Assembly (NCBI GenBank): GCA_023264635.1 | Contig: JAHFLT010000002.1 | Coordinates: 19,139-83,138 of the forward strand | From: Candidatus Woesearchaeota archaeon | GTDB taxonomy: Archaea > Nanobdellota > Nanobdellia > Woesearchaeales > JAGVYF01 | Reading direction: 5' to 3' | Length of the DNA stretch: 64,000 bases | Part shown: piece after piece, positions 21,025 through 62,899 of the stretch | Layout: the number at the start of each line of letters is the position of its first letter | How positions within the stretch are numbered: the stretch's first letter is position 1 | Notes under the pieces: generated by a model | The model's database searches: none | Told to the model about the DNA's origin: nothing | What the model saw: the letters and a program-made list of their open reading frames with translations, nothing else | Made by a program: the position numbers and the translations under genes

Positions 21025-21719
21025 AGAGAACGATGAACATGCCATGTATACGTTGCGTGGACAGTGTATCCTGTTTTGCGCGCTATAATGGGTCCTGAGA
21101 CAAAATGAGGAAAGCAAATAATCATTCTGCCGTAAAGAAGAGATTTTGTGTGCAACAAGAAGGAAAGATACAATGAAATAAGTGACTTGACAGAAGTGCT
21201 CTTGCCGTAAGGTAAATCAGTAACAATAGCATTTATTTTTTGTGATAATGAACATGCATCCTTGTATGCGAACGTTGCCGGGAATCCTGCGAGCCGTTTT
21301 TTGGCAATGGCTATCGCTACCTTGTCAACATCATAACCTACAACAGGATGTCCTAGTTTAGCTGCTTCTAATAAGATTCCTCCAGTACCACAGAATGGAT
21401 CCACTATCTCTGTCGAGCGCGGAACCTGTGTGAGATTAACCATCACACGCGCAAGTTTGGGTGGAAGACCGTTTGGCCGTGCTCTTTCTCTTTTTACAAA
21501 GATGCTTTTTTTACGTCGCTGGAGAGGCACCTGTTTATCATTAGTTATAATGAAGACATCTTTAACCAGCCCAAGATCTTTATTGTAGACAAAACCGTTT
21601 ACTAGAAGCCTTTCACCTTCCTCTGCAAGAATCCTTAGTGTGGGGTAAACACTGAACAGTTCTGCCTTTGCAAGACATACATTTTCACCAGATAAGATAA
21701 TAAGATACTTATTTTCCAT
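20991..21719 (-). CDS. Trm11/UPF0020-like RNA (guanine-N2) methyltransferase
   Basis: SAM-binding 'DPFCGTGGILLEAAKLG', acidic 'GYDVD', catalytic 'DLPYG'. The 3' end overlaps the DUF192 gene by 34 nt, convergently. Confidence 0.6.
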   Translation of the reverse strand: MENKYLIILSGENVCLAKAELFSVYPTLRILAEEGERLLVNGFVYNKDLGLVKDVFIITNDKQVPLQRRKKSIFVKRERARPNGLPPKLARVMVNLTQVPRSTEIVDPFCGTGGILLEAAKLGHPVVGYDVDKVAIAIAKKRLAGFPATFAYKDACSLSQKINAIVTDLPYGKSTSVKSLISLYLSFLLHTKSLLYGRMIICFPHFVSGPIIARKTGYTVHATYTWHVHRSLYRELLVLSNK

Positions 21720-22641
21720 GGAGATATATTTTTATCACTGCCTGTTTTCGTAGCTGATTCGCATGACTCAGAATTGCTTTGTTTTGTTTCTGCATGAGAA
21801 GCATCCTCTGCAACTTGCCTTTTACTTCAAAATAGCTCAATGGTCTTGATGACCGCTTATCATATACCTTGAGTATATGAAAGCCATATGTAGTCTTAAA
21901 AGTAGGAGAGGTTCCGTTGACTGGAGTTGTGAAAACAAACTTATCGAATTCCGGAACAGTTTGACCTTTGTATATATAACCCAAATTACCACCGAGCGGG
22001 GCTGAGAAAGAGTCTTCAGAATATTGTTTCGCCAACTCATCAAATGAGATTCCCTTTTTTATCTTATCGATAATTTGTTGCAGCGTCTCATCAAGCTCAA
22101 GACTTGTTTTTCCATTGAGCTTAATCAGAATATGAGCAACATGCACGCTTTCCGGTAGTACAAACTCTTGCGAATTATTATCGTAGTACTCTTTTTCTTC
22201 TTCTGGGGAGACAGTGACGTTGGTCAGGACAGTTTTGTTCAGATATTTTGCAATAAGTAATTGCGCCCGTAGGTGTTCTTTGGATGGGGAATATCCGAGG
22301 AGGGTAAACGTTTCATTGGCAGATATGTTTGCTTGCTCCAAAGCCAGTCCAAGCTCATTGTCTTTTACGCTTATTCCTAATTTTGCTGCTTGCTGCAAGA
22401 ATAGCTTCTGTAAGATAAGGTGTTCTAATGTATCTTGTTTGAGAACTGCATTTTCGATATCAGAAAGGAGAATTGGTTCTCCATTAATGAGAGCCGCATA
22501 TCCTTTTATCTTATCAAGTGGCAGCGCTGCATAAAGCTGTTCCCGGAAGAGAACTCCCCCGAGGAGAAGGAAAAATACACCGAATAGTACAATTCTCCCA
22601 TATCTGCATTGCATTTTTTTCATCGGAGGTGTTACGGACAA
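21709..22641 (-). CDS. Membrane-anchored parvulin-type peptidyl-prolyl cis-trans isomerase (SurA/PrsA-like)
   Basis: N-terminal TM 'IVLFGVFFLLLGGVLF'. PpiC domain 'VHVAHILIKL...FDELAKQYSED..SAPLGGNLGYIYKGQTVPEFDKFVF...GFHILKV'. Confidence 0.65.
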   Translation of the reverse strand: MSVTPPMKKMQCRYGRIVLFGVFFLLLGGVLFREQLYAALPLDKIKGYAALINGEPILLSDIENAVLKQDTLEHLILQKLFLQQAAKLGISVKDNELGLALEQANISANETFTLLGYSPSKEHLRAQLLIAKYLNKTVLTNVTVSPEEEKEYYDNNSQEFVLPESVHVAHILIKLNGKTSLELDETLQQIIDKIKKGISFDELAKQYSEDSFSAPLGGNLGYIYKGQTVPEFDKFVFTTPVNGTSPTFKTTYGFHILKVYDKRSSRPLSYFEVKGKLQRMLLMQKQNKAILSHANQLRKQAVIKIYLHGK

Positions 22642-25266: not shown

Positions 25267-26448
25267 TTAGAGTCTTAATTCTTTCCGTAAGACTTCTGCT
25301 TTGTCCCTATTTTCCCATGTGAGATTGGGCTGTTCCCTGCCAAAGTGCCCATAGTTAGTTGTTTCTCTGTAAATAGGTCGCAGTAAATCAAGCATCTCGA
25401 TAATCCCCCGTGGCCGCAAATCAAAATGTTTGATGATAAGCTTCTCGATCTTCCGTTCATCAACCTTGTTGGTTCCAAAAGTATCAACATAAACAGAAAC
25501 GGGTTCAGCAATTCCAATGGCATATGCAATCTGCACTTCGCATACGTCTGCCAGTCCGGCAGCAACAACATTCTTTGCAACGTAGCGTGCTGCATATGCT
25601 CCGCTCCTGTCTACTTTGCTGGGATCTTTTCCAGAAAATGCGCCACCGCCATGCCGTGCCCAGCCGCCGTAGCTGTCAACGATAATCTTTCTCCCCGTAA
25701 CCCCGGAATCCCCTAGTGGCCCCCCGATTTCAAAACGGCCAGTCGGATTTATGTGAATCTTGGTTTTGTCATCAACATATTCTTTCAACGTAGGGAGGAT
25801 GACATATTCGTAGAGCACAGCACGCAACTCTTCCAGCGAGATCTCATCACTGTGATGTGCAGAAAGTACGACAGCATCAACCCTTTTAGGTGTACCATCT
25901 TCAAATTCAACAGTAACTTGACTTTTACCATCCGGTCGTAAATAAGATCCCCCATAATACTTATTGTCGCTATAATTAGAAAGCGCACATGTTAACGCAT
26001 GTGCTAATTTAATGGGGAGTGGCATGAGTTCTGGGGTGTGATTTATTGCATAGCCGAACATCATCCCCTGATCTCCAGCTCCTTGCTCCTTGTCATCACG
26101 AGCAGATACGCCCATATCAATATCAGGGCTCTGCGGAGTAATAAACGTATTAACATTTACTGTTTTGTAATTAAATCCTTTTTCATCAGCATCATAACCA
26201 ATACTATCGAGTGCGTGCCGCACCACGTGTTCCAGATTTATTTCTGCGCGAGTTGTCAACTCTCCTGCGAGATTGACATAATGATGATACCCAAGTTTAT
26301 CTCGTACACACTTGACTTCCGTTTCCACAGCAACACGGGAATGCTTGTCCTGTTCTAAACATGCATCCAGTATGCTATCAGAAATGTAATCACAAACTTT
26401 GTCCGGATGTCCCCCTGTCACACTCTCAGACGTAAATAACTTTTTCAT
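25267..26448 (-). CDS. metK: S-adenosylmethionine synthetase, bacterial/eukaryotic (MetK) type
   Basis: '[13 protein letters not shown]', '[12 protein letters not shown]', '[27 protein letters not shown]', 'VQIAYAIG'. Confidence 0.9.
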
Positions 26449-27888: not shown

Positions 27889-28659
27889 TTAATTTTCACC
27901 TTTTGGCGGTTCACCTTTCGTCCCTTTCACAACAATCTTCCGCAATTCTGCAAGATGCCTGTCAATAGCATCAAGATTATCTGACACCGCATGCATCATA
28001 TAATTTGTCCCTTCCGCAACGTAAGGTGGAAGTTTCTTAAAATCTGTGTTTTTGTAAAATGTATCGTGAGATACTTCAGCCCATGCATGCTGCAGTGTTG
28101 TGCGCAACTGTAATTCTCCTTCCAGAGAAAGTCCTATCTCTGGTCTAAGGTAAACAAATGCGAAATCACATGATCTATAGCCCGATTCCGGCACTTTATC
28201 AATCCAATCCCCGTTCTCATCACGCGGGTATCTGCTTTGTAGCGAGAATGGTGGCAACTGAATCTCTGCATCTAAGATACTCCGCAACTCCTTGCACTCA
28301 TCTGCAAACCTGCAGATAATACGATAGCCGACAGTATCATCCAACGGAAGATTTTCCCACGTAATGCTGCCTTCGCATAACTTTCTGTAAATGCTTTCTA
28401 GGGATTTCACACGGCTCACGACTTTAAGGGAATATGCTTTGTCAAGAAGATGGAGTTCTGCACTAATCGGTGACTTTATCACCGCCCTGTTCACTAGTCG
28501 CTGTAAATCCCTCTGGATATCCGTATCGTATTCACGGAGTTTCTGGATTATTTCCTCGTAGCACTCGCTAAGCTGGCCATGTGCTGTATAGTCCTTACGC
28601 AATGTATCATATGAGGGAAATGATTGCAAGATCGCATTAAGGTTTGTTGGTAATTTCAT
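27889..28659 (-). CDS. RelA/SpoT-family nucleotidyltransferase (small alarmone synthetase, SAS-like)
   Basis: Synthetase motifs 'SRVKSLESIYRKL', 'DDTVGYRIICRF', 'GYRSCDFAFV', 'GELQLRTTLQHAWAEVSHDTFYK'. Confidence 0.75.
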   Translation of the reverse strand: MKLPTNLNAILQSFPSYDTLRKDYTAHGQLSECYEEIIQKLREYDTDIQRDLQRLVNRAVIKSPISAELHLLDKAYSLKVVSRVKSLESIYRKLCEGSITWENLPLDDTVGYRIICRFADECKELRSILDAEIQLPPFSLQSRYPRDENGDWIDKVPESGYRSCDFAFVYLRPEIGLSLEGELQLRTTLQHAWAEVSHDTFYKNTDFKKLPPYVAEGTNYMMHAVSDNLDAIDRHLAELRKIVVKGTKGEPPKGEN

Positions 28660-37387: not shown

Positions 37388-38245
37388 ATGCTTACTGCCG
37401 TAATTACTGTACCTGTGGCAGATGTCTTTTCTGAGCCACAACCATCTTCGTTAGAGCACCAACTTCTTCTCGGGGAAAGTGTTACCGTTCAGGAGAAGAA
37501 TGGGGGTTATTGCCGCATAACATCCTACAATGAGCAATATCCGGGGTGGATAAGAAAAGAGCAATGCAGAATATATGATATTTGTGAAGCATTGTATGCG
37601 GAAAAAAACGTCGTTATGGTAGCTGACAAACATATCAGGTGTTACATACCAAACCAGAGAAATTTTCTTTCTTTATTAGCGGGGACAAAAGTGGAAGCCT
37701 GTGATAACAAAGGAAGCTATCTTGAAGTTCTGTTACCTTCGCATGATAATGGGTTGATTGATCCAGAAGGAGTTATTTACCATCAACATTGTTCTTCACC
37801 ACAGCAGATAATTTCAACAGCGCGAGAAATTAGTACGTGGGAGATCCCTTATCTCTGGGGAGGCATGACGCCGAAAGGTATAGACTGCTCCGGGTTAATG
37901 AAACTTATTCTGCGTCTTAATGGGACAGAAACATTTCCACGGGATTCATGGCAACAATATGCATGTACTACTGGTGCCCAATATGATGAGCGCACTGTTG
38001 CGCACAAGATAACTGACCACACTACACTGCAGCCAGGTGACATGGTTTTTTTTACTGCACCAGAAAAAGAACCACGAGTAACACACGTAGGTATGATGCT
38101 CAATTCAACCCATTTTCTTCACGCATCTAAAAGAGTGCATGATGCAACTGGTGGAAGAAACGCGCTTGCACTATCGACATTTGTCAGAGATTCATTCTTT
38201 GATGATTATTACGAGAAGTATTTTGTAGGGGGAAGGAGGTTTTGA
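37388..38245 (+). CDS. NlpC/P60 (C40) family peptidase with N-terminal SH3-like region
   Basis: Catalytic Cys context 'WGGMTPKGIDCSGLMKLI'; His in 'VTHVGMM'. Confidence 0.65.
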   Translation: MLTAVITVPVADVFSEPQPSSLEHQLLLGESVTVQEKNGGYCRITSYNEQYPGWIRKEQCRIYDICEALYAEKNVVMVADKHIRCYIPNQRNFLSLLAGTKVEACDNKGSYLEVLLPSHDNGLIDPEGVIYHQHCSSPQQIISTAREISTWEIPYLWGGMTPKGIDCSGLMKLILRLNGTETFPRDSWQQYACTTGAQYDERTVAHKITDHTTLQPGDMVFFTAPEKEPRVTHVGMMLNSTHFLHASKRVHDATGGRNALALSTFVRDSFFDDYYEKYFVGGRRF

Positions 38246-44807: not shown

Positions 44808-47027
44808 ATGCTCAAAGATTTCACCCCTCGCTTGTATCAGGAAACTATCTTTGCAACCTGCACAAAAGATAATACGCTCGTTGTGCTACCGACGGGGTTG
44901 GGGAAAACTAATATATTTCTTATGGTGGCAGCATACAGACTGCTGCAGCATCCAAACTCAAAGGTTCTTCTTCTGGGTCCCACACGCCCACTAATCAAAC
45001 AATATTTTGATGTTTTTTCCCGACATCTCCAAATTAGTCAGGATGACATGGCTGTTTTCACTGGACAAGTCAGTCCGGAAAAAAGAGAAGAGCTGTGGAA
45101 AAAGGCACGCGTCATTTTCTCAACCCCGCAGGGATTGGAAAATGATATCATCAATAAGAGAATCACATTTGAGGACGTCTCTCTTCTTGGCATTGATGAG
45201 GCACACCGTGCAGTGGGAGATTATAGTTATGTCTGGCTGGCAAAGCAGTATGCTGAAAAGGCACAGTACCCCCGTATCGTTGCTTTGACCGCGTCTCCCG
45301 GTTCTGAGTTGGAGCATATCCAAGAAGTCTGTACAAATCTGAGTATAGACGAAATAGAAGTCAGGACAGAACGTGACAATGATGTTGAACCATATATCCA
45401 ACAGGTGAAGATAACGTGGGTCAGTGTCTCGTTGCCTGATGAATTACAACAGGTAAGAAAATATTTCAAGCTCGCGTGCGTCACAAAATATGATGAGCTC
45501 AAAAGCATTGGTTTTGTGCCGTATTTTCCACTTGACAGAGCTTCACGAAAAGACTTACTGGGTTTTCAGACAGAGTTACATGGCCAAGTCGCATCTGGTG
45601 ACAGGAGTAAGGATTTGTTGAGAGCAATCTCGCTGATGGCTGAAGTGATGAAGATACAGCATGCACTGGAGCTTGTAGAAACCCAAGGAATAACTGCAGT
45701 AAATAAGTATCTGTCACACCTTGAAGAGGAATCACGCATAACACGTGTCAAAGCAACCCAGAACGTCGTTGCTGACAGTTATGTCCGCATGGCTATTGCG
45801 AAATGCCAACTGCTGATGCAACAGAAGATTGAGCATCCAAAAATAGGAGAAGCAAAGAGAATCATTGCCAAGTGCATTGAAGTGAACCCATCAGCAAAAT
45901 TCATTCTTTTCAGCCAATACCGAGACTCTGTCACAAAGCTTGTCAGCGAGCTGAATACGCTCCAGGGTATACAGGCGCGTGTCTTTGTCGGTCAGGTGAA
46001 AAAGAGAGACACAGGTCTTTCCCAGAAGGAGCAGCTTGCATTGTTGGATGAGTTTAAGGAAGGAAAATTCAATGTGCTTGTCAGTTCATCTGTCGGTGAA
46101 GAAGGATTAGACATCCCTGCTGTTGACACAGTCATGTTCTATGAGCCTGTACCAAGTGCCATTCGTCACATTCAGCGCAGAGGGAGAACAGCGCGTCAAG
46201 AGAAAGGGAATGTCATTGTGTTGGTGACAAAGGATACGAGGGATGAGAGCTACCGCTGGAGTGCCTTCCACAAGGAAAAAAAAATGTACCGCTTGCTGGC
46301 AGAACTGAAAGGTAAACTCAAACTAGGCCAGAGACAGATTGTGCTCCAAACCAAAATAGAACAACCCTCCGAACTAAAACTAGTAAAAGTATATGCAGAT
46401 TTTCGTGAACGGGGAAGTAACATAGTCAAAGAGCTTATTGCATTGGGTGCAGACGTAAGATTGGAACAGTTGGATGTTGGAGACTATATTGTATCTGCCA
46501 GAGTCAGCATAGAATACAAGTCAGTGCAGGATTTCGTCCAATCGCTGATAGATGGAAGATTGCTTCCGCAGCTAAAGAGATTGAAGGATAATTTTGAGAG
46601 GCCAGTAGTCATTATAGAGGGCATTGAAGATCTCTACACAGTGCGTAATATTCATCCAAATGCGTTGCGGGGGATGTTAGCAACGATTGCAGTGAGTTTC
46701 GGAATCCCATTGTTGTTCACAAAGACAAACAAGGATACTGCACAAATGATAGCCACTATCGCACGCCGCGAGCAGGACGAGGATGACACTCTGCCTTCCC
46801 TGCATACGAGTAAAAAGCCAACATCAACCAAAGAATCGCAAGAGTATATCGTATCGGCACTACCCGGAGTTGGTGCTACGTTATCAAGACCGCTACTTGC
46901 TCAGTTTAAAACGATAAAGAATTTAGTTAATGCTCCTGAGGAAGAATTAATGAAGATTGATAATATAGGTATTGGCAAGGCAAAAAGGATTAGGGAAGTA
47001 TTGGATAATGAATATAGCGAAGGATAG
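44808..47027 (+). CDS. hef: Hef helicase-nuclease (archaeal FANCM/XPF homologue): SF2 helicase + ERCC4 nuclease + HhH2
   Basis: 'VLPTGLGKT', 'DEAH' ('GIDEAHRA'), 'SAIRHIQRRGRTAR', ERCC4 'ERPVVIIEGIEDL', HhH2 'LPGVGATLSRPLL...IDNIGIGKAKRI'. Confidence 0.85.
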   Translation: MLKDFTPRLYQETIFATCTKDNTLVVLPTGLGKTNIFLMVAAYRLLQHPNSKVLLLGPTRPLIKQYFDVFSRHLQISQDDMAVFTGQVSPEKREELWKKARVIFSTPQGLENDIINKRITFEDVSLLGIDEAHRAVGDYSYVWLAKQYAEKAQYPRIVALTASPGSELEHIQEVCTNLSIDEIEVRTERDNDVEPYIQQVKITWVSVSLPDELQQVRKYFKLACVTKYDELKSIGFVPYFPLDRASRKDLLGFQTELHGQVASGDRSKDLLRAISLMAEVMKIQHALELVETQGITAVNKYLSHLEEESRITRVKATQNVVADSYVRMAIAKCQLLMQQKIEHPKIGEAKRIIAKCIEVNPSAKFILFSQYRDSVTKLVSELNTLQGIQARVFVGQVKKRDTGLSQKEQLALLDEFKEGKFNVLVSSSVGEEGLDIPAVDTVMFYEPVPSAIRHIQRRGRTARQEKGNVIVLVTKDTRDESYRWSAFHKEKKMYRLLAELKGKLKLGQRQIVLQTKIEQPSELKLVKVYADFRERGSNIVKELIALGADVRLEQLDVGDYIVSARVSIEYKSVQDFVQSLIDGRLLPQLKRLKDNFERPVVIIEGIEDLYTVRNIHPNALRGMLATIAVSFGIPLLFTKTNKDTAQMIATIARREQDEDDTLPSLHTSKKPTSTKESQEYIVSALPGVGATLSRPLLAQFKTIKNLVNAPEEELMKIDNIGIGKAKRIREVLDNEYSEG

Positions 47028-47061
47028 GCAGAAAGGCTAGACAAGGGAGGACAAGATGCCA

Positions 47062-47076
47062 TTTTTATATTTTTAT
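47062..47076. terminator. Oligo-T tract between convergent hef and htpX (archaeal-type terminator candidate)
   Basis: 'tttttatatttttatt'. Confidence 0.25.
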
Positions 47077-47080
47077 TCCC

Positions 47081-47935
47081 TCACACGTTGTCTCTCAATG
47101 CATGTAGCCGAGCAACCCTATCTTCTGTTGCTGGATGCGTACTGAAAAGCGTAAAGAGCCCTTTTGCAGTGAATGGATTAGTGATAAAGAGGCTTGACGT
47201 TGCTTCTGAACCAAAAGGCATTGGATGACGCATAACATTGCGCTCTATTTTTTCCAATGCACGAGCGAGCGCCTCGGGGTCTTTGGCTAAGCGAGCTCCG
47301 CTTTCATCAGCAAGATACTCACGGCTACGTGAGATGGAGAACTGAATGATTGTGGCAATGATTGGTGTGAGAACCGCCAAGACGAGTAACCCAATCATAT
47401 TTCCGTTCCCACGATCTTCATCCCTCCCACCTGTACCAAATAGCGCTGCCCATTGTGCCATGTTGGCAAGATAACTAATAACGCCTGCAATGGTTGCTGC
47501 AATGGTTGTAATGAGAATATCCCGATTTTTCACATGAGAGATTTCATGCGATAGCACGCCACGTAATTCGTCTTTATCGAGGATGCGCAATATTCCTTCA
47601 GTAGCTGCTACTGCTGCATGCATTGGATTTCTCCCCGTAGCAAAAGCATTCGGTGTTTCCGTCGGAATGATATAGACTCGTGGCATTGGAATGCGTGCAA
47701 GATGTGCAACTTCTGCGACTGCTTTGTACAACGGATGCGTTTTGTCTACTTCCTGCGCACGGTACATCATCAGGACAATTTTGTCGGAGAAGAAATAACT
47801 AAACAAGTTTATCATTAGTGCAAATACCAGCCCTATGAAGAGACCTGCCTTCCCACCCAACAACTGCCCGGCACCAAGCATAAGACCTGTAAGCAAACCT
47901 AATAGGATAATGGTCTTGATTTGATTCTTTACCAT
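47081..47935 (-). CDS. htpX: HtpX-like M48 zinc metalloprotease
   Basis: 'HEISHVKNRD' HExxH; N-terminal TM helices; 'FSTHPATEDRV'. Confidence 0.85.
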   Translation of the reverse strand: MVKNQIKTIILLGLLTGLMLGAGQLLGGKAGLFIGLVFALMINLFSYFFSDKIVLMMYRAQEVDKTHPLYKAVAEVAHLARIPMPRVYIIPTETPNAFATGRNPMHAAVAATEGILRILDKDELRGVLSHEISHVKNRDILITTIAATIAGVISYLANMAQWAALFGTGGRDEDRGNGNMIGLLVLAVLTPIIATIIQFSISRSREYLADESGARLAKDPEALARALEKIERNVMRHPMPFGSEATSSLFITNPFTAKGLFTLFSTHPATEDRVARLHALRDNV

Positions 47936-47968
47936 AAAAGGTATAAAAGCTGAGACGAGTATAAAAAA

Positions 47969-49198
47969 TTATCTTTTATTTTTTTTCTCTTTGACAGTAA
48001 ACTCCTTATACATCTGCAATGTGTCAAACTGGACAAAAAACCGATACTCACCAGCTTCAGTAAAAGTAAAGTCTGCTTTCTGGTTCCAGAATGATGCAAC
48101 ATCAAAATAAGAGTATGGTTGAATTGTAATTCGCCTTGGGTCTATGCTGTAGACTTCCCCCCATTTCCCGCTCTTTTTCTTCTCCAGCGCAATAAACACC
48201 TTACCTTTTTTCTCTTCGTGAAACGGATTGGAGACAAAACTTGAGAACACTGGTTTTGGCCTGGTAACGGTGCATCCGCCTTTTCCATCACATCCATTTA
48301 TAAGACTACACACTGTTCCTTCTGGTAGGAAATTGTATGAACATTCACCTTGATGGCATGTTCCAACTGCGGAAAAGCAGCTGTCTGGTGGAGATGAACA
48401 AGCAACATTGCTGCACGGATCTGGAACATAGTTAACATGAACCTCTTTTTTTGTTTCATCGAACGACTCATCTTTGTGCGCGAATTGGAACACGATTGTA
48501 TTTTTACCTTCTTGCAGGTACACATTGAATGGTGACTGTACATTATGTTTGACCAGCTCCCCGTTAAGGAAAGCGTCAACGTGCATTGTCGAAGGCATAT
48601 TGTACGCCGTGAACGTAACCTGCATTTCAGGGTCATGGACAAGAGAAGACGACTCGACAAATAGTGTTGGGCCTGTAATGGCTGTAGCACTTACAGTAAA
48701 CGAGATGCTCTTCTCCAGTTGCTGCAGGACTTTATGGTCACGGTTGACGACAGCTACAGATGATACATGCTTGCCAGAGCCCAATGAACCTAAAGACGTG
48801 GGAGAAACTGCGTCATGATGAACAAGACCATCTATTGTGACATCTATGTGCGATCCTTCTGGCGGATGTGCTGTCTCAAAAAGGACCTCTATGCTGTCCT
48901 TCCGTCCATAGAAACCATTCTCAGTAGGCGCTGTGATGTGCAATGTAGATAGGGACGGTTCAACACACTTGGCATGTTCACATGCTAATGGAGGTTGACA
49001 TTCCTCCTCTACAGAATAAATGCACTTTGGCTTTTCACTTGACCCTGCTTTTTTTCCAATGACTATTTGATTGTCATCACAATGGCGTGTTGCGCATTGC
49101 CCGAGAAGTTTAACGCTAATCTGGTGGGCAAAGACTAAGTGAACAAAGACTGTTCCCATAAGCAACAGAAAACACAAAATAATAAAGAGGTTTTTCAT
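47969..49198 (-). CDS. Hypothetical secreted Cys-rich protein
   Basis: Signal 'LFIILCFLLLMGTVFVHLVFA'; ~24 Cys in N- and C-terminal clusters. Confidence 0.5.
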   Translation of the reverse strand: MKNLFIILCFLLLMGTVFVHLVFAHQISVKLLGQCATRHCDDNQIVIGKKAGSSEKPKCIYSVEEECQPPLACEHAKCVEPSLSTLHITAPTENGFYGRKDSIEVLFETAHPPEGSHIDVTIDGLVHHDAVSPTSLGSLGSGKHVSSVAVVNRDHKVLQQLEKSISFTVSATAITGPTLFVESSSLVHDPEMQVTFTAYNMPSTMHVDAFLNGELVKHNVQSPFNVYLQEGKNTIVFQFAHKDESFDETKKEVHVNYVPDPCSNVACSSPPDSCFSAVGTCHQGECSYNFLPEGTVCSLINGCDGKGGCTVTRPKPVFSSFVSNPFHEEKKGKVFIALEKKKSGKWGEVYSIDPRRITIQPYSYFDVASFWNQKADFTFTEAGEYRFFVQFDTLQMYKEFTVKEKKNKR

Positions 49199-49206
49199 AG
49201 TTACCG

Positions 49207-49488
49207 TTACCTTAGTTTTGGTTTATCCTCAACAGAATAGCTTTCTTTGTCAGGAGAAATGACGATACTGATAGCATTTAGTAGGACATCTGGTTCTCCT
49301 TGTGGTTTAGGGGGGGGAGGGAGTGTGGTGGATGGAGTATATGACGTTGAGGGAGTAGAGATTTCTTTCGTAACACTTTCTTTTGCGAGACGCTTTTCAA
49401 CCACTTTCTTCAGGCTGCACCCAGTAATAATCCCAGTAATAATAAGTCCTGCCATAATCCCAATCAGAATAAATACCACCCATCTCAT
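49207..49488 (-). CDS. Hypothetical small membrane protein (lipoprotein-like N-terminus)
   Basis: 'VVFILIGIMAGLIITGIITGC'; P/T-rich linker. Confidence 0.35.
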   Translation of the reverse strand: MRWVVFILIGIMAGLIITGIITGCSLKKVVEKRLAKESVTKEISTPSTSYTPSTTLPPPPKPQGEPDVLLNAISIVISPDKESYSVEDKPKLR

Positions 49489-49527
49489 ACGCTATGCTGA
49501 ATGTTTCATGCTTATCTATTTTTCCAA

Positions 49528-49896
49528 TTAGTTTTCCAATGTTTGTATATAATGAGGTAACCCCTCAATCTGTCTTAGGGGTGTGTAACGAAAGAGGAAT
49601 AGTCTGAATCGGTTATCAATTCTCACCCCTCTCTCAGACAACGCCCTCCTGAAATATGCAAAAAGTTTTTTCCCTTCTTTGTCTAGATCAACAAGGATAA
49701 TGCAATCCACATATTGGTCCGCAATGAATTCTACTGTTTGATAGTGCGGCCTTCCCTTTACAACATGCACATTGTGAATACCAAGCATTGCCAGCGCTGC
49801 GACGTCTTTTTTTCCTTCGACAAGAATAATACCTGTGCTGTCCCTTAGTTTATCTACCCACGCACCCATGCATGCTTCTACCTCTACTGTTTTCAT
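49528..49896 (-). CDS. Small Toprim-domain protein (UPF0292-like)
   Basis: 'IILVEGKKDVAAL' (conserved Glu) and 'CIILVDLDKEGKK' (DxD) define a Toprim fold. Confidence 0.55.
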   Translation of the reverse strand: MKTVEVEACMGAWVDKLRDSTGIILVEGKKDVAALAMLGIHNVHVVKGRPHYQTVEFIADQYVDCIILVDLDKEGKKLFAYFRRALSERGVRIDNRFRLFLFRYTPLRQIEGLPHYIQTLEN

Positions 49897-50000
49897 TCTG
49901 CTGTTTCCATTGGTATTTCCATTTTAGTAAGAGTAATAATTGGTATCCAAGGGGTAAATGTAATTAATAGGAGATATAAAGGTAGTATGCGCAATTGTCG

Positions 50001-50020
50001 GAAAAAATTTAAATAATTAC
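50001..50020 (+). promoter_or_regulatory. Candidate BRE/TATA box for the primase gene
   Basis: 'gaaaaaatttaaataattac' ~40 nt upstream of the ATG at 50055. Confidence 0.35.
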
Positions 50021-50054
50021 AGAAAAAGAATTAAACTGTAGCATCGTTCTTTCT

Positions 50055-51482
50055 GTGATGTTAGATCCAAGGATAGCATTGGAATATTACTCTAGACCAG
50101 AGATAAGGGAAGCAATCGTCGAACATGCAAAAGATAAGGAAGCTGTGGGCTCGATTAATAATGAGGTATTTCGAAAACGTCCTGATGTTCTCCAGTACCC
50201 GGCAGATGTCTACGAATTGGCAAAACAGGGTGTGACGAGCTTCCATGCCTCTGAAGAGAGATGGAGCAACCCTCTGTTTCTACAGCCCGGCATGCAGAGA
50301 AAAGTGATAAATGAATTACGAATTGGATGGGATTTGGTGCTGGATATTGACTGCCCTGACCTGGATCTTTCACGATTGGCTGCTGTCCTGTTGATACAGG
50401 CAATAAGATACCACGATGTAAAAGCAGTGACAATTAAATTCTCTGGTAACCATGGGTTTCACCTTGGCATTCCATTTGAAGCTTTCCCGGAAAAGATTGG
50501 TGACAAGGAAACATGTCTCATTTTTCCGGAAGCGCCCAGAATAATTGCCGCATATCTAAAAGACTTCATCGCGAGCCATTTGAGAAAAGATATGCTCCAA
50601 AGATACTCCCTGCAGGAATTGGCAGTGAGAGGAAAAAAGAAAGAAGAGGACATTGTAAAAAACGGGGAATTTGATCCGTATGCTGTACTTTCTCTAGATA
50701 CAGTCCTCATCTCATCACGCCATCTCTATAGGATGCCTTACTCATTCAATGAGAAATCTAATCTTATCTCTGTGCCCATTCTGCCAGAAGAAGTGATGAC
50801 ATTTTCTAAGGAAGATGCACAGCCGGACAAAGTATTTCCAAAAGCATTTCCCCATATGAAATTTCTTGACAGAGAAGTGATTCCTTTTGAAGCACGCCGC
50901 TTTGTACAGGAGGCATACGATCACAGGACACCATCTGAAGAGATATATACTATTGAAAAAAAAACACAGCGCGTAGAGCCCCAGGATGCTGTTTCCGAGC
51001 AGTTTTTTCCACCATGTGTACATAATATACTCAAAGGGCTGCCAGACGGCAAGAAAAGAAGTCTCTTCATCTTATTAAATTTCCTGCGGTGCTGTCATTG
51101 GCCAAATGAAAATGTTGAAGATCTTATCAATGAATGGAACAAGCGTAATCCAGAACCTGTCAGGGATATTTTCCTGCTTGGGCAACTGCGCTATTTCAAG
51201 CAAAAAAAAGAGAAAATCCCTCCTCCAAATTGTACGAATATACAGCAGAATCACCACGACATTGGTATCTGCACACCAGATAATTTTTGCCGGAAGATAA
51301 AGAATCCCGTGCAGTATGCAAAATGGAGAGCACGTAGCGCACGTCGTGAAACAGAAAAAGAAACAGCAAAGCCGAGAGAGAAACTTACTGAAGAACAAAA
51401 AGAAATGAGACGTCGCTATAGGCTGTCTGTGATAGACATGCCACCGGTATCACCGACGACAAATGTAAACTATTCTGAGTAA
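50055..51482 (+). CDS. priS: DNA primase catalytic subunit PriS, with a C-terminal Cys-rich region that may be a fused PriL-CTD-like module
   Basis: PriS motifs 'LVLDIDCPDLD' and 'FSGNHGFHLGIP'. C-terminal 'PPCVHNIL...LRCCHW...NCTN...GICTPDNFC' (6 Cys). Confidence 0.6.
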   Translation: MMLDPRIALEYYSRPEIREAIVEHAKDKEAVGSINNEVFRKRPDVLQYPADVYELAKQGVTSFHASEERWSNPLFLQPGMQRKVINELRIGWDLVLDIDCPDLDLSRLAAVLLIQAIRYHDVKAVTIKFSGNHGFHLGIPFEAFPEKIGDKETCLIFPEAPRIIAAYLKDFIASHLRKDMLQRYSLQELAVRGKKKEEDIVKNGEFDPYAVLSLDTVLISSRHLYRMPYSFNEKSNLISVPILPEEVMTFSKEDAQPDKVFPKAFPHMKFLDREVIPFEARRFVQEAYDHRTPSEEIYTIEKKTQRVEPQDAVSEQFFPPCVHNILKGLPDGKKRSLFILLNFLRCCHWPNENVEDLINEWNKRNPEPVRDIFLLGQLRYFKQKKEKIPPPNCTNIQQNHHDIGICTPDNFCRKIKNPVQYAKWRARSARRETEKETAKPREKLTEEQKEMRRRYRLSVIDMPPVSPTTNVNYSE

Positions 51483-51500
51483 CCTTTATATATCAGTGGA
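51480..51500 (+). promoter_or_regulatory. Candidate TATA box for the r-protein operon (~85-nt leader)
   Basis: 'cctttatatatca'. Confidence 0.3.
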
Positions 51501-51580
51501 CTTCCCTCCCGGTTACGGGTAAATAAGAGCCTGCAAGTGCGAGGACCATTGTCCTTAGCGTTTGGTACTCTTTCCAAACA

Positions 51581-52549
51581 ATGCCAACAAGAAGAAGTCC
51601 ACGTAGAGGAAGTATGCAATTCTGGCCCAGAAGGAGGGCTGAACGGGAATACCCGCGCATTAGACGCTGGCCTGCCCTTAAAGTAATCAAACCTTTGGCA
51701 GTTGGTGGTTATAAGGCAGGCATGACACATTGCCTAGTTATTGACAAACGACCTAACTCTCCCACAAAAGGAGAACAAATTTCTATCCCAACAACAATCG
51801 TTGAATGCCCACCGATGGTTTTATGCGGAGTCAGATTCTATAAAAATGCTCCAGAGGGCAAAAAAACAGTGACGCAGCTGTCTATGGAAAACCCAAAAAA
51901 AGATTTGTCAAGAAAAATTTCTTTACCGAAGAAAACAAAGACATGGGATACTATTCCCGAGTGGGATGATCTTGTTATCTTGGTTCATACGCAACCACGC
52001 AAAACAGGCATTGGAAAAAAGAAGCCGGAGGTATTTGAGATTGCACTCGGTGGCTCAAAAGAAGAGAAGCTTGCCTATGCAAAAGAAAAGCTTGGCAAAG
52101 AGATTTCTTTGCAGGATGTTTTTAAGAATGGGCAGATAGTGGATGTTCACGCAGTGACGACAGGAAGGGGATTTGTAGGCGCTGTCAAAAGGTTCGGTGT
52201 TGCCATAAGGCACCATAAATCAGAAAAAAGCAGGCGTGTGGCTATTATAGGTCCTGAGGGATATGCAAAGGTCAAGCACACTGTTTGTCAACATGGAAAA
52301 AAGGGGTATAATCTGAGAACTACTTATAATCTTCAAATGATTCTTCTCTCTGACAAAGTAGAGCAGGTGAACCAATCTGGTGGTATCAACAGATATGGCA
52401 TGATAAAGAATCCGTATGTCCTTTTGAAAGGCTCAGTGCCAGGACCAAAGAAGCGTTTTGTCCTTCTCACAGAACCAATCAGACCAGACAAGACGATGGA
52501 CACAAGACCGATGGAGATTTCATACATCAGTTCAGCATCGAAACAATAA
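51581..52549 (+). CDS. rpl3: Ribosomal protein uL3
   Basis: 'RRGSMQFWPRRRA', 'GYKAGMTH'. Confidence 0.9.
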   Translation: MPTRRSPRRGSMQFWPRRRAEREYPRIRRWPALKVIKPLAVGGYKAGMTHCLVIDKRPNSPTKGEQISIPTTIVECPPMVLCGVRFYKNAPEGKKTVTQLSMENPKKDLSRKISLPKKTKTWDTIPEWDDLVILVHTQPRKTGIGKKKPEVFEIALGGSKEEKLAYAKEKLGKEISLQDVFKNGQIVDVHAVTTGRGFVGAVKRFGVAIRHHKSEKSRRVAIIGPEGYAKVKHTVCQHGKKGYNLRTTYNLQMILLSDKVEQVNQSGGINRYGMIKNPYVLLKGSVPGPKKRFVLLTEPIRPDKTMDTRPMEISYISSASKQ

Positions 52550-52623
52550 ACATGATAAATGAAACAAGAAAAACAATACAATATCTAAACACAATACACA
52601 CATAAGTAGAATAAATCAACACA

Positions 52624-53427
52624 ATGAAAGCCATTGTAGTAAACACAGAAGGGAATGATGTGGGCAATGTCAATTTGCCAGATCAGTTTGATGAAGAATA
52701 TAGACCTGATATTATTAGCAGAGCAGTACTTACCATAGAAAGTAATAACCGACAGCCATTCGGCGCAGACCCGATGGCCGGGAAGCGTGCCGCTGCAAAA
52801 CTTTCACGTCGAAGAAGAGATTACAAAAGTGGTTATGGCAAAGGAATTAGCAGAGTGCCGCGTAAGACACTCTCTAAGCGTGGTGCACAGATGAACTGGG
52901 CAGGAGCATTTGCACCGGGAACAGTGAAAGGCAGGAAAGCTCATCCTCCAAAAGCAGAGAAAGACTGGAAAAAAAAGATCAACAAAAAAGAAAACAGAAA
53001 AGCTATTCGCAGCGCCTTGCACGCGGTCGCCAACAAAATGATTGTTGCTGCAAGGGGTTATGATATGCCAAAAACATATCCTGTTGTATTAGATGGTTCA
53101 TTTGAGAAGCTTGCAAAAACAAAAGAAGTCAAGGCGAGCTTTGAGAAATTAGGTTTTGCAGGGGAACTCCTTAAAGTAGCTGAGCATCATGTGCGTGCTG
53201 GACGCGGGAAGATGCGCGGACGCCGCTACAAAAGAAAAACTGGTCCACTCATCGTCATAGGAGATGTATGTCCTCTAAGAAACGCTGCAAAGAATCTTGG
53301 CATGGATGTCGTTGTTGTGAAGAATCTCAATGCAAAAGATCTTGCACCTGGCGCATTGCCCGGGAGACTGACGCTTTTCACCCAAAGTGCACTTGAGCGT
53401 ATGCAAAAGGAGAGGTTATTTGTCTGA
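52624..53427 (+). CDS. rpl4: Ribosomal protein uL4
   Basis: Operon position; 'GRGKMRGRRYKRKTGPLIV'. Confidence 0.85.
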   Translation: MKAIVVNTEGNDVGNVNLPDQFDEEYRPDIISRAVLTIESNNRQPFGADPMAGKRAAAKLSRRRRDYKSGYGKGISRVPRKTLSKRGAQMNWAGAFAPGTVKGRKAHPPKAEKDWKKKINKKENRKAIRSALHAVANKMIVAARGYDMPKTYPVVLDGSFEKLAKTKEVKASFEKLGFAGELLKVAEHHVRAGRGKMRGRRYKRKTGPLIVIGDVCPLRNAAKNLGMDVVVVKNLNAKDLAPGALPGRLTLFTQSALERMQKERLFV

Positions 53428-53687
53428 TGGACTCATACACAATAATCAAATATCCAGTAGCTTCGGAAAAGGCAATCCGCCTGATGGAAGCAGAAAACAA
53501 ACTTCTTTTCCGCGTTGACATGAAAGCAAAAAAAGATGACATAAAAAAAGCTGTTGAGAACATGTTTAAGACAAAAGTCATGCGTGTGCGGACACTTATC
53601 ACGGCACGCAGTGAGAAAAGGGCATATGTCACATTCAGCAAAGAAACACCGGCAATTGACATTGCAACACAATTAGGTCTGCTCTAA
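53427..53687 (+). CDS. rpl23: Ribosomal protein uL23
   Basis: 'IIKYPVASEKAIRLMEAENKLLFRVD'. Confidence 0.85.
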   Translation: MDSYTIIKYPVASEKAIRLMEAENKLLFRVDMKAKKDDIKKAVENMFKTKVMRVRTLITARSEKRAYVTFSKETPAIDIATQLGLL

Positions 53688-53688
53688 A

Positions 53689-54405
53689 ATGGGAAAATCA
53701 CTTGTACAACAAGCAAGAGGCCGGGGAGGCCCGACATACCGTGCACCGAGCTTTAATTATCTTGGAGAGGTAAAATATGTAGGTGCACAATTTTTGATGG
53801 GGACCGTTGTAGATATAGTCCATTGCCCTGGACATTCTGCTCCTCTTGCATCAGTAGTCTATGAAAATAAAGAAACAGGATTGTTGATAGCCCCAGAAGG
53901 TATAAAAGTTGGAGATCATGTTACTATGGGTGGTGACCCTCAATTGGGGAACACCTTGCTGCTGCGGGATATACCTGAAGGCACACTTATCTGTAATGTT
54001 GAAAGCAATCCGGGTGACGGTGGAAAATTTGCACGCGCCTCGGGGATATTTGCCAAGATACTGACAAAAGGGAAAAAAATTACTGTCATGCTTCCATCAA
54101 AAAGGCAACGTGAATTCTCGCCAGCGTGCCGGGCGACTATTGGCGTTGTGGCCGGTGGCGGAAGAACTGAAAAACCTTTTATGAAAGCGGGTATACGGTA
54201 TTATAAGATGAAGCAACGTAATAAATATTGGCCACGTACATCTGGCACAAGCCAGAATGCAGTTGATCATCCATTCGGTGGCAAGCGCTCAAGCAGGAAG
54301 GGAAGGCCTACTGTTGCACCGAGATTTGCACCAGCAGGTCGTAAAGTCGGTAAACTGCATCCACGGAAGACCGGCCGCTTCAAGATGAAGAAGGTGACTG
54401 CATAA
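53689..54405 (+). CDS. rpl2: Ribosomal protein uL2
   Basis: '[11 protein letters not shown]', '[15 protein letters not shown]'. Confidence 0.9.
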
Positions 54406-54788
54406 TGGTCAAGAAAGAATTCACCTATCGCGGAAAAACAGAAACTGAACTGAAGAATATGTCACTGCCGGAATTGTCATTGTTGCTCACTGCACGCCCG
54501 AGACGAACACTCAAGCGGGGATTCAACGACTACCAGAAAACCTTGCTGAAAAAGATAAGAAACGGTGAAAAAAACATCAAGACACACGATCGCGATATGC
54601 TTATACTTCCAGAGATGTTCGGTGCAATGGTTAAAGTATATAATGGCAAAGAATTCCAATTAGTAACAATTATACCGGATATGCTTGGGCATTATCTTGG
54701 GGAATTTGCCATGACGAGAAAATCAGTTAGGCACAATGCGCCCGGCATTGGAGCAACTAAGTCCAGTGCCAGCGCTTCGGTGAAGTAA
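54405..54788 (+). CDS. rps19: Ribosomal protein uS19
   Basis: '[30 protein letters not shown]'. Confidence 0.85.
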
Positions 54789-61533: not shown

Positions 61534-62118
61534 ATGAAAAGCAGATTATCTGTTCCATTTCGGAGAAAGCGTGAAAGGATAACGAATTATCGCAAGAGAT
61601 TAGTTGTCCTCAGAAGTAAGTTTCCACGCACAGTAGTGAGAACATCCCTAAAGAATATAATTATACAACTAACTACATACAATTCGGAAGGGGATAAAGT
61701 CTTGTTACATGCTGACTCAAAAGAATTATCCAAATATGGCTGGCTTGCCAGTGGTGGCAATGTGCCTGCTGCATATCTGACCGGATACTTATTTGGCATG
61801 CGCGCAAAAAAACATGATATGTGTGAGGCTATCCTTGACATAGGATTGCATGTCTCCACAAAAGGGAGTAGGGTTTATGCAGCTCTCCGGGGAATGCTTG
61901 ATGGGGGCATGAATATCCCACACGACAAAGAATGCTTGCCAGACGAAGGACGTGTTTCTGGAAAGCATATTACGGATTATGCTGCTACGCTTCCAAAGGA
62001 ACAATACCAAACTAGATTCAGTGGGTACATTAAAGCAGGGATAGAGCCTGCTTCTCTGGAGAAGTATGTTACCGCAACAAAAAAACATATTGAAGGAGCA
62101 CGCCATGGAAAAGAATGA
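61534..62118 (+). CDS. rpl18: Ribosomal protein uL18
   Basis: 'TNYRKRLVVLRSKFPRTVVRTSLKNIIIQL'. Confidence 0.9.
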   Translation: MKSRLSVPFRRKRERITNYRKRLVVLRSKFPRTVVRTSLKNIIIQLTTYNSEGDKVLLHADSKELSKYGWLASGGNVPAAYLTGYLFGMRAKKHDMCEAILDIGLHVSTKGSRVYAALRGMLDGGMNIPHDKECLPDEGRVSGKHITDYAATLPKEQYQTRFSGYIKAGIEPASLEKYVTATKKHIEGARHGKE

Positions 62119-62899
62119 AACAGAAGAGCTTGTTGTACAGCCTGCAGCAGAACTTATAGCAGTTCCTGTTGCAGAGGAGGAAGTGGTTGTCCATGTCAAA
62201 ACCAGCATCGACAAATGGCAGCCGAAGACCTCTCTTGGGAAAAAGATAAAGATGAGGGACATTACGGATGTAGATGTTATCTTCGATGCGGGCATGAAAA
62301 TCCTTGAAGTGGAGATTGTTGATATGTTATTTCCAGACTTAAAGAATGAGCTCCTCCTGATAGGACAGGCAAAAGGAAAATTCGGCGGCGGCCAGCGTAG
62401 GGTCTTTAGGCAAACACAAAAAAAGACTAATGAAGGCAATAAACCGCACTTCGGCACATTAGCTGCTGTTGGTAATGAAAATGGCTTTATTGGTGTAGGC
62501 TATGGAAAGAGCAAGGAGACAGTTCCGTCTAGAGAAAAAGCAGTGCATAAAGCAAAACTTAATCTTGTCAAGATTCGTAGGGGATGCGGTTCATGGCAAT
62601 GCGTCTGTAAAGAGCCACATTCCATACCCTATAAAGTAAGTGGCAGATGCGGGTCTGTTCGTATTTCCCTTTTACCTGCGCCAAAAGGAACAGGTCTTCG
62701 TATTGACAGGGAAGTTGCAAAAATATTACGCTTGGCTGGCATCCGCGATATATGGTCAGAGACCACTGGCCAGACAAGAACCAAAATAAATCTTATAGCA
62801 GCAACAATGAAGGCGCTCATGTCTGCACTACAGACGAAAGTTAAACCAGATGAAATGGAATTTCTCGGCGTCATGGATGGCAAGGTGAAAGCACAATGA
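62105..62899 (+). CDS. rps5: Ribosomal protein uS5 (start taken at 'MEKNETEEL')
   Basis: 'FGGGQRRVFRQTQKKT', 'AAVGNENGFIGVGYGKSKE'. Confidence 0.9.
   Translation: MEKNETEELVVQPAAELIAVPVAEEEVVVHVKTSIDKWQPKTSLGKKIKMRDITDVDVIFDAGMKILEVEIVDMLFPDLKNELLLIGQAKGKFGGGQRRVFRQTQKKTNEGNKPHFGTLAAVGNENGFIGVGYGKSKETVPSREKAVHKAKLNLVKIRRGCGSWQCVCKEPHSIPYKVSGRCGSVRISLLPAPKGTGLRIDREVAKILRLAGIRDIWSETTGQTRTKINLIAATMKALMSALQTKVKPDEMEFLGVMDGKVKAQ

Follow-up and report, generated by a model that had tools for sequence, protein, structure and literature searches.

The stretch of DNA analyzed here, a 64-kb window (64,000 nucleotides) of contig JAHFLT010000002.1 from a Candidatus Woesearchaeota archaeon, carries a gene for a DNA primase in which the catalytic domain of the small subunit, PriS, and the Fe-S domain of the large subunit, PriL, are joined in one polypeptide. 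This monomeric (NEQ395-type) PriS-PriL primase gene occupies positions 50058..51482 of the forward strand, as delimited by its open reading frame (ORF), by an identical database protein, P0001, and by the starts of its homologues. A gene for a small Toprim-only protein lies upstream in divergent orientation, and the main ribosomal-protein operon follows downstream. The host belongs to DPANN cluster 2: the closest relatives of the primase are from Woesearchaeota/Nanoarchaeota, the NCBI lineage is Archaea; Nanobdellati; Candidatus Woesearchaeota, and the window holds archaeal ribosomal proteins and Hef.

The ORF opens with a GTG at 50055 and ends at 51482 (+), stop codon included, which gives 475 amino acids (aa). 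The database protein P0001 shows 100% identity over 474 aa and begins one codon downstream, at ATG 50058; the identical protein sits on a 109,571-bp ENA contig and was called on three contigs in all. Homologues in the family open with MIDPKIAL, at the Met equivalent to that encoded by ATG 50058 (alignment A1). Because P0001 and the homologues begin at this Met, ATG 50058 is the likely start of the gene, which would then encode 474 aa. Residue numbers given below follow the 475-aa numbering, counted from the GTG at 50055.

The N-terminal part of the protein (residues 1-292; 50055..50930, +) is an archaeo-eukaryotic primase (AEP)/PriS catalytic domain, as indicated by the Pfam family PF01896, AlphaFold2 (AF2) modeling, Foldseek comparison and conservation. 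PF01896 aligns with residues 97-242 at 23.1 bits, just short of its cut-off of 26.8 bits, and the three AEP motifs are all found: hhhDhD as LVLDID (D97, D99), sxH as SGNHGFH (S130, H136) and hD as LD (D215). By homology, D97 and D99 of LDIDC together with D215 make up the putative metal-binding acidic triad, while H64, the S130 and H136 of SGNHGFH, H223 and R226 are the putative nucleotide-binding or catalytic residues. These eight positions are 95-100% conserved, that is, in 236-248 of 248 aligned relatives; all conservation percentages reported here come from this alignment of 248 family members. The domain holds two cysteines only, C100 and C154, and consequently has no Zn-knuckle. The full AF2 model, built on a 20-member family alignment, has a mean predicted local distance difference test (pLDDT) score of 84 and a predicted template modeling (pTM) score of 0.61, and consists of two confident domains, with pLDDT mostly above 85 in the N-terminal one. 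When this model was compared with known structures by Foldseek, it matched AEP domains, namely those of PrimPolC, LigD-pol, human Pri1 and the PriS proteins of P. abyssi, P. furiosus and P. horikoshii, with E-values from 1e-6 to 6e-4.

A flexible inter-domain linker follows at residues ~293-309 (50931..50981, +). It amounts to ~17-20 low-confidence residues, with AF2 pLDDT below 50 over the disordered stretch 293-309, and it differs among relatives in both length and sequence (alignment A1). Beyond it, residues ~310-430 (50982..51344, +) form a PriL C-terminal (Fe-S) domain, recognized by PF04104, NCBIfam models, the P. abyssi PriL sequence in PDB (9f26_B), AF2 and conservation. PF04104 (PriL) aligns with residues 297-416 at 25.1 bits, over its cut-off of 22.4, through positions 88-218 of the 266 in the profile, and the NCBIfam PriL equivalogs cover residues 295-450 through profile positions 205-356 of 360 only. 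Since the PriL models of both Pfam and NCBIfam align by their C-terminal part only, no counterpart of the PriL N-terminal domain (NTD) is present. Searched against PDB sequences, the single primase sequence found P. abyssi PriL (9f26_B) with E=4.7e-7, and a 20-member family profile found it with E=5.8e-9, aligning the motifs FPPC and PPNC...C.PD..C. The C-terminal domain modeled by itself with AF2 reached a pLDDT of 87, and its top Foldseek matches were the yeast p58C/PriL Fe-S domain (6du0, 7tl4, 3lgb) and S. solfataricus PriX, with E-values that were not significant.

The whole primase contains eight cysteines, at positions 100, 154, 321, 346, 347, 393, 406 and 412. Four of them are predicted ligands of a [4Fe-4S] cluster on the basis of conservation and the alignment of the cysteine motifs: C321 (51015-51017), C393 (51231-51233), C406 (51270-51272) and C412 (51288-51290), all on the forward strand, which are kept in 86-92% of the 248 family members. 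Within the same domain, conservation and comparison with NEQ395 point to K333, R335 and F338, in the motif DGKKRSLF (+), as predicted initiation residues: R335 is invariant among the 248 members, K or R occupies position 333 in every one of them, and F338 is kept in 96%.

The original prediction had described the gene as a single-polypeptide primase made of a PriS domain and a PriL C-terminal domain (CTD)-like module, and Pfam, the PDB profile search, AF2 and the conservation over 248 members agree with it, the similarities being far greater than chance would give. The PriS motifs that it quoted are present, LDIDCPDLD at 96-104 and SGNHGFHL at 130-137, and the similarity to the PriL-CTD that it had suspected for the C-terminal region is sustained by the scores of PF04104 and 9f26_B. 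Its six C-terminal cysteines, in PPCVHNIL (319-326), RCCHW (345-349), NCTN (392-395) and GICTPDNFC (404-412), are all present, but only the four named above are conserved ligands; those of RCCHW are poorly kept, C346 in 10% and C347 in 33% of the members. The prediction was also right that the window holds no separate priL, since Pfam and family hidden Markov model (HMM) scans were negative for both priS and priL. More precisely, no second priS- or priL-like gene was found in the 64-kb window, either by Pfam on the likely genes or by the family HMMs on all six-frame ORFs of at least 40 aa. The Pfam scan covered ORFs of at least 100 aa minus antisense shadow ORFs, plus one ORF of 93 aa; for uL3, uL4, uL23, uL2 and uS19 the ribosomal Pfam families were taken from database gene calls instead.

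A given Fe-S ligand is absent from ~8-14% of the 248 family members. In P0262 and P0230 all four cysteines are replaced (for example, FPPS/FSPT for FPPC and PPNF for PPNC; alignment A3), and P0248 and P0190 show partial loss. These replacements point to a probable loss of the Fe-S cluster in some monomeric-primase lineages.

The protein that serves best for comparison is NEQ395 of Nanoarchaeum equitans, studied by Schneider, Bergsch and Lipps in 2023, who described an RNA primase that is monomeric and highly active and primes at triplets whose central base is T, yielding products of ~9 nt (PMC10250227). It has the same architecture, a PriS catalytic domain, a linker and a PriL Fe-S domain with no PriL-NTD. 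Its [4Fe-4S] cluster is held by C289, C364, C376 and C384; the brown chromophore was seen, but the cluster is dispensable in vitro, as the cysteine mutants are active (PMC10250227), and the loss of cysteines in some family members fits with this. Residues R301, R303 and F306 of its PriL domain are required for initiation and not for elongation; the separated domains do not complement each other in trans, and a shorter linker leads to abortive short primers (PMC10250227). When the residues mutated in NEQ395 were placed on the window primase by motif identity and spacing, 16 of 16 mapped collinearly, in a monotonic series with offsets of +6, +10, +10, +11, +11, +11, +21, +21, +21, +32, +32, +32, +32, +29, +30 and +28. 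All are identical in the two proteins except K122, which corresponds to H133, and R301, which corresponds to K333. The authors called K122 'less conserved' (PMC10250227), and, save for position 133, the mapped positions are 86-100% conserved in the 248 relatives. The four cysteines are spaced 72/13/6 in the window primase and 75/12/8 in NEQ395. The window primase is ~80 aa longer (474 versus 393 aa), owing to small insertions in the PriS domain and a charged tail of ~45 aa, and it belongs to a presumably mesophilic uncultured host, whereas NEQ395 is biochemically characterized.

The one-polypeptide architecture is the rule among its relatives. A search of database proteins gave 3,614 matches at E <=1e-3, the best being Candidatus Woesearchaeota and Nanoarchaeota proteins of 430-480 aa from metagenome-assembled genomes (MAGs), with up to 60% identity, and many of the best matches were already annotated with both PF01896 and PF04104. 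When representatives clustered at 50% identity were searched exhaustively, 650 clusters were found, and at least 584 loci encoding a relative were found in species-representative genomes, the best 80 being Woesearchaeota-type MAGs. From these searches 160 loci were fetched, 80 genomic ones (the best matches, L001-L080) and 80 metagenomic ones centered on a member 35% identical to the query. PriS and PriL-CTD lie within a single ORF in 159 of the 160, the exception, L102, being an interrupted partial contig. The scan of 2.9 million viral contigs gave no relative.

Some family members differ from this plan in length or labeling. Several representatives are about double length (P0133, 934 aa; P0140, 883 aa; P0155, 962 aa; P0252, 1019 aa; P0249, 727 aa), with the primase match split or shifted, and may possibly contain inteins or N-terminal fusions; P0099 (623 aa) has a NUDIX domain (PF00293) besides the primase domains. 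Many contigs with a Woesearchaeal-type primase and the same synteny (L001, L011, L014, L019, L030-L032 and others) carry the title 'uncultured Methanosarcinales archaeon' in MAG records submitted in bulk, which is probably a taxonomic mislabel.

The fusion of a PriS catalytic domain to a PriL Fe-S domain was reportedly first noted by Iyer et al. in 2005, in N. equitans. Raymann et al. (2014) added Parvarchaeota and Nanohaloarchaeota to its known range, and found the same primase split over two adjacent genes in one nanohaloarchaeon (PMC3914693). Dombrowski et al. (2020) reported the fused primase in all members of DPANN cluster 2 and in Undinarchaeota, with canonical priS and priL in cluster 1 (PMC7414124). 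Genomes with the fused primase are described as being without canonical priS/priL (PMC7414124; PMC3914693; bioRxiv 10.64898/2026.06.17.729505). A 2026 preprint treats the fused primase as a defining synapomorphy of 'Nanostetteria', with Woesearchaea explicitly included; in it, a search that started from NEQ395 recovered the clade to which Woesearchaeal primases belong, and the DPANN primase phylogeny is congruent with the species tree (bioRxiv 10.64898/2026.06.17.729505). The belief, expressed in the original prediction, that such fusions had been described essentially only for Nanoarchaeum-like lineages must therefore be abandoned, as they are published for all of DPANN cluster 2 and for Undinarchaeota (PMC7414124; PMC3914693; bioRxiv 10.64898/2026.06.17.729505). 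Since the Woesearchaeota belong to the lineages with a published fusion, the gene is no exception; it encodes an expected and already described member of the family, the fusion itself is not new, and for this reason the finding is of low interest. The gene confirms the DPANN cluster 2 origin of the window, and its product is one more unremarkable member of a thoroughly documented family, used both as a marker in phylogeny and as a minimal model of eukaryote-type primases.

What we observed at this locus is domain homology, a modeled fold, collinearity of the residues tested in NEQ395, a one-ORF architecture and a core-chromosomal context. The protein is very probably the chromosomal replicative primase of this Woesearchaeote, a member of DPANN cluster 2, and an orthologue of NEQ395; its biochemistry and its role as the sole primase of the genome we infer. 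By homology, the N-terminal domain would polymerize ribonucleotides through catalytic divalent metals bound to D97, D99 and D215, with the elongating nucleoside triphosphate (NTP) held by H64, S130, H136, H223 and R226. The PriL-CTD would bear the [4Fe-4S] cluster on C321, C393, C406 and C412, and K333, R335 and F338 would grip the template along with the initiating nucleotide or the primer's 5' end. The flexible covalent linker (~293-309) may substitute for the docking of the PriL-NTD on PriS: it would position the CTD above the active site so that a dinucleotide can form, after which the CTD would leave with the primer 5' end, so that the length of the linker would cap primer growth, as it does in NEQ395 (~9 nt there).

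Canonical PriS/PriL primases, such as those of P. abyssi (9F26/9F28) and S. solfataricus (1ZT2) and human Pri1/p58, have the same AEP motifs (hhhDhD, sxH, hD), the same PriL-CTD with four cysteine ligands and the same presumed mode of initiation, in which the CTD grips the initiating NTP and the primer 5' end. The window primase differs from them in being one chain, in having neither the ~200-aa docking platform of the PriL-NTD nor the Zn-knuckle of PriS, and in sequence, the similarity being very low (12-18% identity in structural alignments). A canonical heterodimeric PriS/PriL enzyme was ruled out, as there is a single ORF and no PriL-NTD. PolpTN2, from plasmid pTN2 of Thermococcus nautilus, is likewise a single chain with PriS-like and PriL-like domains, four cysteines and Fe-S color, but it is plasmid-borne, 923 aa long and without the catalytic His, and it has DNA polymerase and terminal-transferase activities (PMC3973330); it has no detectable sequence similarity to DPANN primases (PMC3914693) and arose independently. 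The prim-pols ORF904 of pRN1 and RepB' of RSF1010 work on the same principle, a catalytic AEP domain with an attached helical domain for initiation, by which template and initiating nucleotide are bound. Their helix-bundle domains, however, lack an Fe-S cluster and are not clearly homologous to PriL, and these proteins are those of mobile elements, often with a helicase fused to them. The NEQ395-type family, by comparison, spans the same range of taxa as the window primase, Woesearchaeota included, and is chromosomal and seemingly single-copy.

Several points weigh against the identification as an NEQ395-type replicative primase. The PF01896 score falls below its cut-off, the mapping of NEQ395 residues was made on motif identity and spacing and not on a direct sequence alignment, priming by NEQ395 in vitro needs no Fe-S cluster and ~8% of the family are without the cysteines, and our inspection covers 64 kb only, so that the rest of the genome may hold another primase or a separate PriL. 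Were there such a PriL, the protein might be a PriS-only subunit partnered by it, whose unrelated Cys-rich helical appendix would be Zn-binding or PriX-like. In Foldseek the CTD on its own does indeed resemble the PriL Fe-S domain only weakly, with PriX among the matches, and the data extend to a 64-kb window of the genome; even so, we regard this as very unlikely, since PF04104 scores above its cut-off, P. abyssi PriL is matched with its Cys-bearing motifs aligned, the four cysteines and the initiation motif K/R-x-R...F follow the same order as their tested counterparts in NEQ395, and published surveys report these lineages to be without a canonical priL (PMC7414124; bioRxiv 10.64898/2026.06.17.729505). 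A mobile-element primase-polymerase integrated in the chromosome, a fusion like PolpTN2, pRN1 ORF904 or RepB' and not the cellular replicative primase, appears extremely improbable. It is true that PriS-PriL-type fusions are known on plasmids, PolpTN2 having four cysteines and a brown color (PMC3973330), that the DPANN primase has been proposed to derive originally from a mobile element (bioRxiv 10.64898/2026.06.17.729505), and that the best Foldseek matches are PrimPol and LigD-type AEPs. But the gene stands between housekeeping genes and the main ribosomal operon in a synteny common to more than 50 genomes, no mobile-element genes (helicase, integrase or other) lie nearby, and the primase itself has no helicase domain. 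Its compact 474 aa contrast with the 923 aa of PolpTN2, viral contigs yielded no relatives, and the lack of sequence similarity between PolpTN2 and DPANN primases (Raymann et al., PMC3914693) also speaks against such an origin. Finally, adjacent priS and priL genes could have been joined through a sequencing or assembly error or a lost stop codon, and both the nanohaloarchaeon with split adjacent genes (PMC3914693) and L102, where the two halves are in separate ORFs, could be cited in favor. That the fusion is such an artefact is effectively refuted by the one ORF seen in 159 of 160 independent genomic and metagenomic loci, the thousands of homologues of the same length, the identical protein called on three contigs, and the complete absence of the PriL-NTD, which a simple read-through would not yield.

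The neighboring Toprim gene (49528..49896, reverse strand) calls for a similar weighing of alternatives. As had been predicted, it encodes a divergent Toprim-only protein of 122 aa: Pfam Toprim_4 (27.1 bits, cut-off 25) and Toprim (24.3 bits) both score above their cut-offs, and the gap to the primase is 158 bp if counted to the GTG and 161 bp if counted to the ATG, the ~160 bp originally given. The protein keeps the Glu (ILVEGKKD) and the DxD (LVDLDKEG) of the fold. In PDB it matches the structural-genomics entry 1T6T ('putative protein') with E=4.3e-12 and the catalytic residues aligned, and, more weakly, 2FCJ and 2I5R; the archaeal NCBIfam family PRK04017, labeled 'hypothetical protein', is matched at E=6e-13 with 48.6 bits versus a cut-off of 120, and the RNase M5 model at 15.6 versus 110.65. 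It thus resembles the small stand-alone Toprim proteins (1T6T, 2FCJ, 2I5R; PRK04017) in being Toprim-only, ~120 aa long and endowed with Glu and DxD, but differs in scoring far under the PRK04017 equivalog cut-offs and in being without the C-terminal domain of RNase M5; we found no demonstrated function in the literature for any member of this small-Toprim group. A word-index search returned 43 close relatives.

One could propose that the primase has a dedicated partner in the Toprim protein, which would assist, for example, in primer processing or in initiation, the two divergent genes forming a module under common regulation. Among the 75 Woesearchaeal loci that have at least 600 nt upstream of the primase, a Toprim gene lies within 700 nt of it in 37 (49%), in divergent orientation in 36 of the 37, and its apparent catalytic residues are intact; moreover, it still adjoins the primase in ~9 loci without the downstream uL3 operon (L007, L018, L069, L074 and L078, for example), several of which have also lost hef and htpX. 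Against this, uL3 is kept downstream of the primase in 34/71 loci, a rate equal to that of Toprim, and in ~17 loci htpX or hef is present upstream but the Toprim gene is missing. No Toprim gene was detected within 6 kb of the primase in any of the 47 metagenomic loci nearest the distant member P0234; the seven metagenomic loci with a Toprim gene near the primase are the more Woesearchaeal-like ones. NEQ395 alone is fully active in vitro, and an RNase M5-like role in RNA processing next to the ribosomal operon fits the Toprim protein equally well. A dedicated partnership thus seems unlikely. Family-wide adjacency was rejected, as it is confined to Woesearchaeal-type loci. Because its rate matches that on the uL3 side and the distant clade has no Toprim gene beside the primase, we read the adjacency as local synteny at the level of the lineage, a functional link being possible but unsupported. 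The pairing to which the original prediction drew attention is thus real, yet no more conserved than the general local synteny, and absent in the more distant clade.

The two genes share a 161-bp intergenic region (49897..50057, unstranded), read directly from the sequence. It contains an A/T-rich, TATA-like stretch, AAAAAATTTAAATAATTA, at 50002-50019, ~40 nt 5' of the primase ATG, which may be a promoter element of the primase. At the other end of the gene, a TTTATATA box lies at ~51486-51493, directly past the stop codon.

The primase ends in a charged C-terminal tail (residues 431-475; 51345..51479, +), marked by a helix in the AF2 model and by the motif LTEEQKEMRRRYR, which corresponds to residues 444-456 (nt 51384-51422), the predicted helix covering 446-460. 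The consensus of this tail helix is LTEEQKxMRRxYR, with a broader form R..LT[ED]EQKx[MA]RRx[YFH]R, and its core EQKx[MA]RR is present in 22/270 family proteins (~8%). The proteins and loci with the motif are P0003-P0020, P0045, P0048, P0064, P0071, P0123, P0127, P0131 and P0148, and L026, L031, L050 and L143; among all ORFs of the window and the 160 loci, none carries it outside a primase tail. A canonical PCNA-interacting protein (PIP) box was rejected, as QKEMRRRY departs from Qxx[LIM]xx[FY][FY]. In NEQ395, which is 393 aa long, too few residues follow the last Fe-S cysteine, C384, to make up a tail of this kind. The tail helix and the frequent divergent pairing with Toprim, two small additions specific to Woesearchaeota, are the only items that go beyond the publications cited here, and they are minor leads. 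On the grounds of conservation and adjacency, one might speculate that the Woesearchaeal minimal primase gained lineage-specific partners that replace the contacts lost with the PriL-NTD, the tail helix docking PCNA, RPA or MCM/GINS, or the Toprim protein acting in, for example, primer processing, although we hold this to be improbable. The helix and the Toprim gene might nevertheless show how a primase without PriL-NTD connects to the replisome.

The primase gene lies directly 5' of the main ribosomal-protein operon, which begins with uL3, uL4, uL23, uL2 and uS19 (51581-54788) and continues via uL22 and uS3 to uL15, and the genes upstream of it include those for Hef, an HtpX-type protease, an Lhr helicase and EndoIII. 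The block hef-htpX-primase-uL3-uL4 was recovered in 52-55 of the 80 genomic loci. Hef and the primase adjoin the main ribosomal-protein operon (44808-54788 in the window) in about two thirds of the Woesearchaeal loci, with uL3 starting ~100-130 nt past the primase stop. The arrangement recalls the clustering of replication and translation genes that Berthon et al. are said to have described in 2008, but the gene set differs. Between htpX and the Toprim gene (47969-49488, reverse strand), the window holds genes for a Cys-rich, signal-peptide-like protein of 409 aa and a membrane-anchored Pro/Thr-rich protein of 93 aa; neither has a Pfam match or a tblastn match in the 80 related genomic loci, and they look like a lineage-specific insertion into the conserved hef-htpX-Toprim-primase block.

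Other genes of the window are worth recording. An ORF at 49-12495 (+) encodes 4,148 aa with HEAT/Armadillo-type repeats (PF13646, 332 bits, 10 stretches, residues ~2600-3100) and an FHA domain at ~2299-2344, its N-terminal ~2,200 residues being without a Pfam match. Four genes encode a SurA-like PPIase (21709-22641, -), a MetK-domain S-adenosylmethionine synthetase of the bacterial/eukaryotic type (25267-26448, -), a small alarmone synthetase-like protein with a RelA/SpoT domain (27889-28659, -) and an NlpC/P60 peptidase with SH3 (37388-38245, +); the Pfam families of these four genes, found here in an archaeal window, are typically bacterial. Finally, the ORF for uS5 (62066-62899, +) encodes 277 aa, in which the N-terminal S5 domain of Pfam does not begin before residue 115, and overlaps the preceding gene by 53 nt; this length could reflect the large uS5 insertion or extension reported for DPANN with the monomeric primase (bioRxiv 10.64898/2026.06.17.729505) or an over-extended ORF start.

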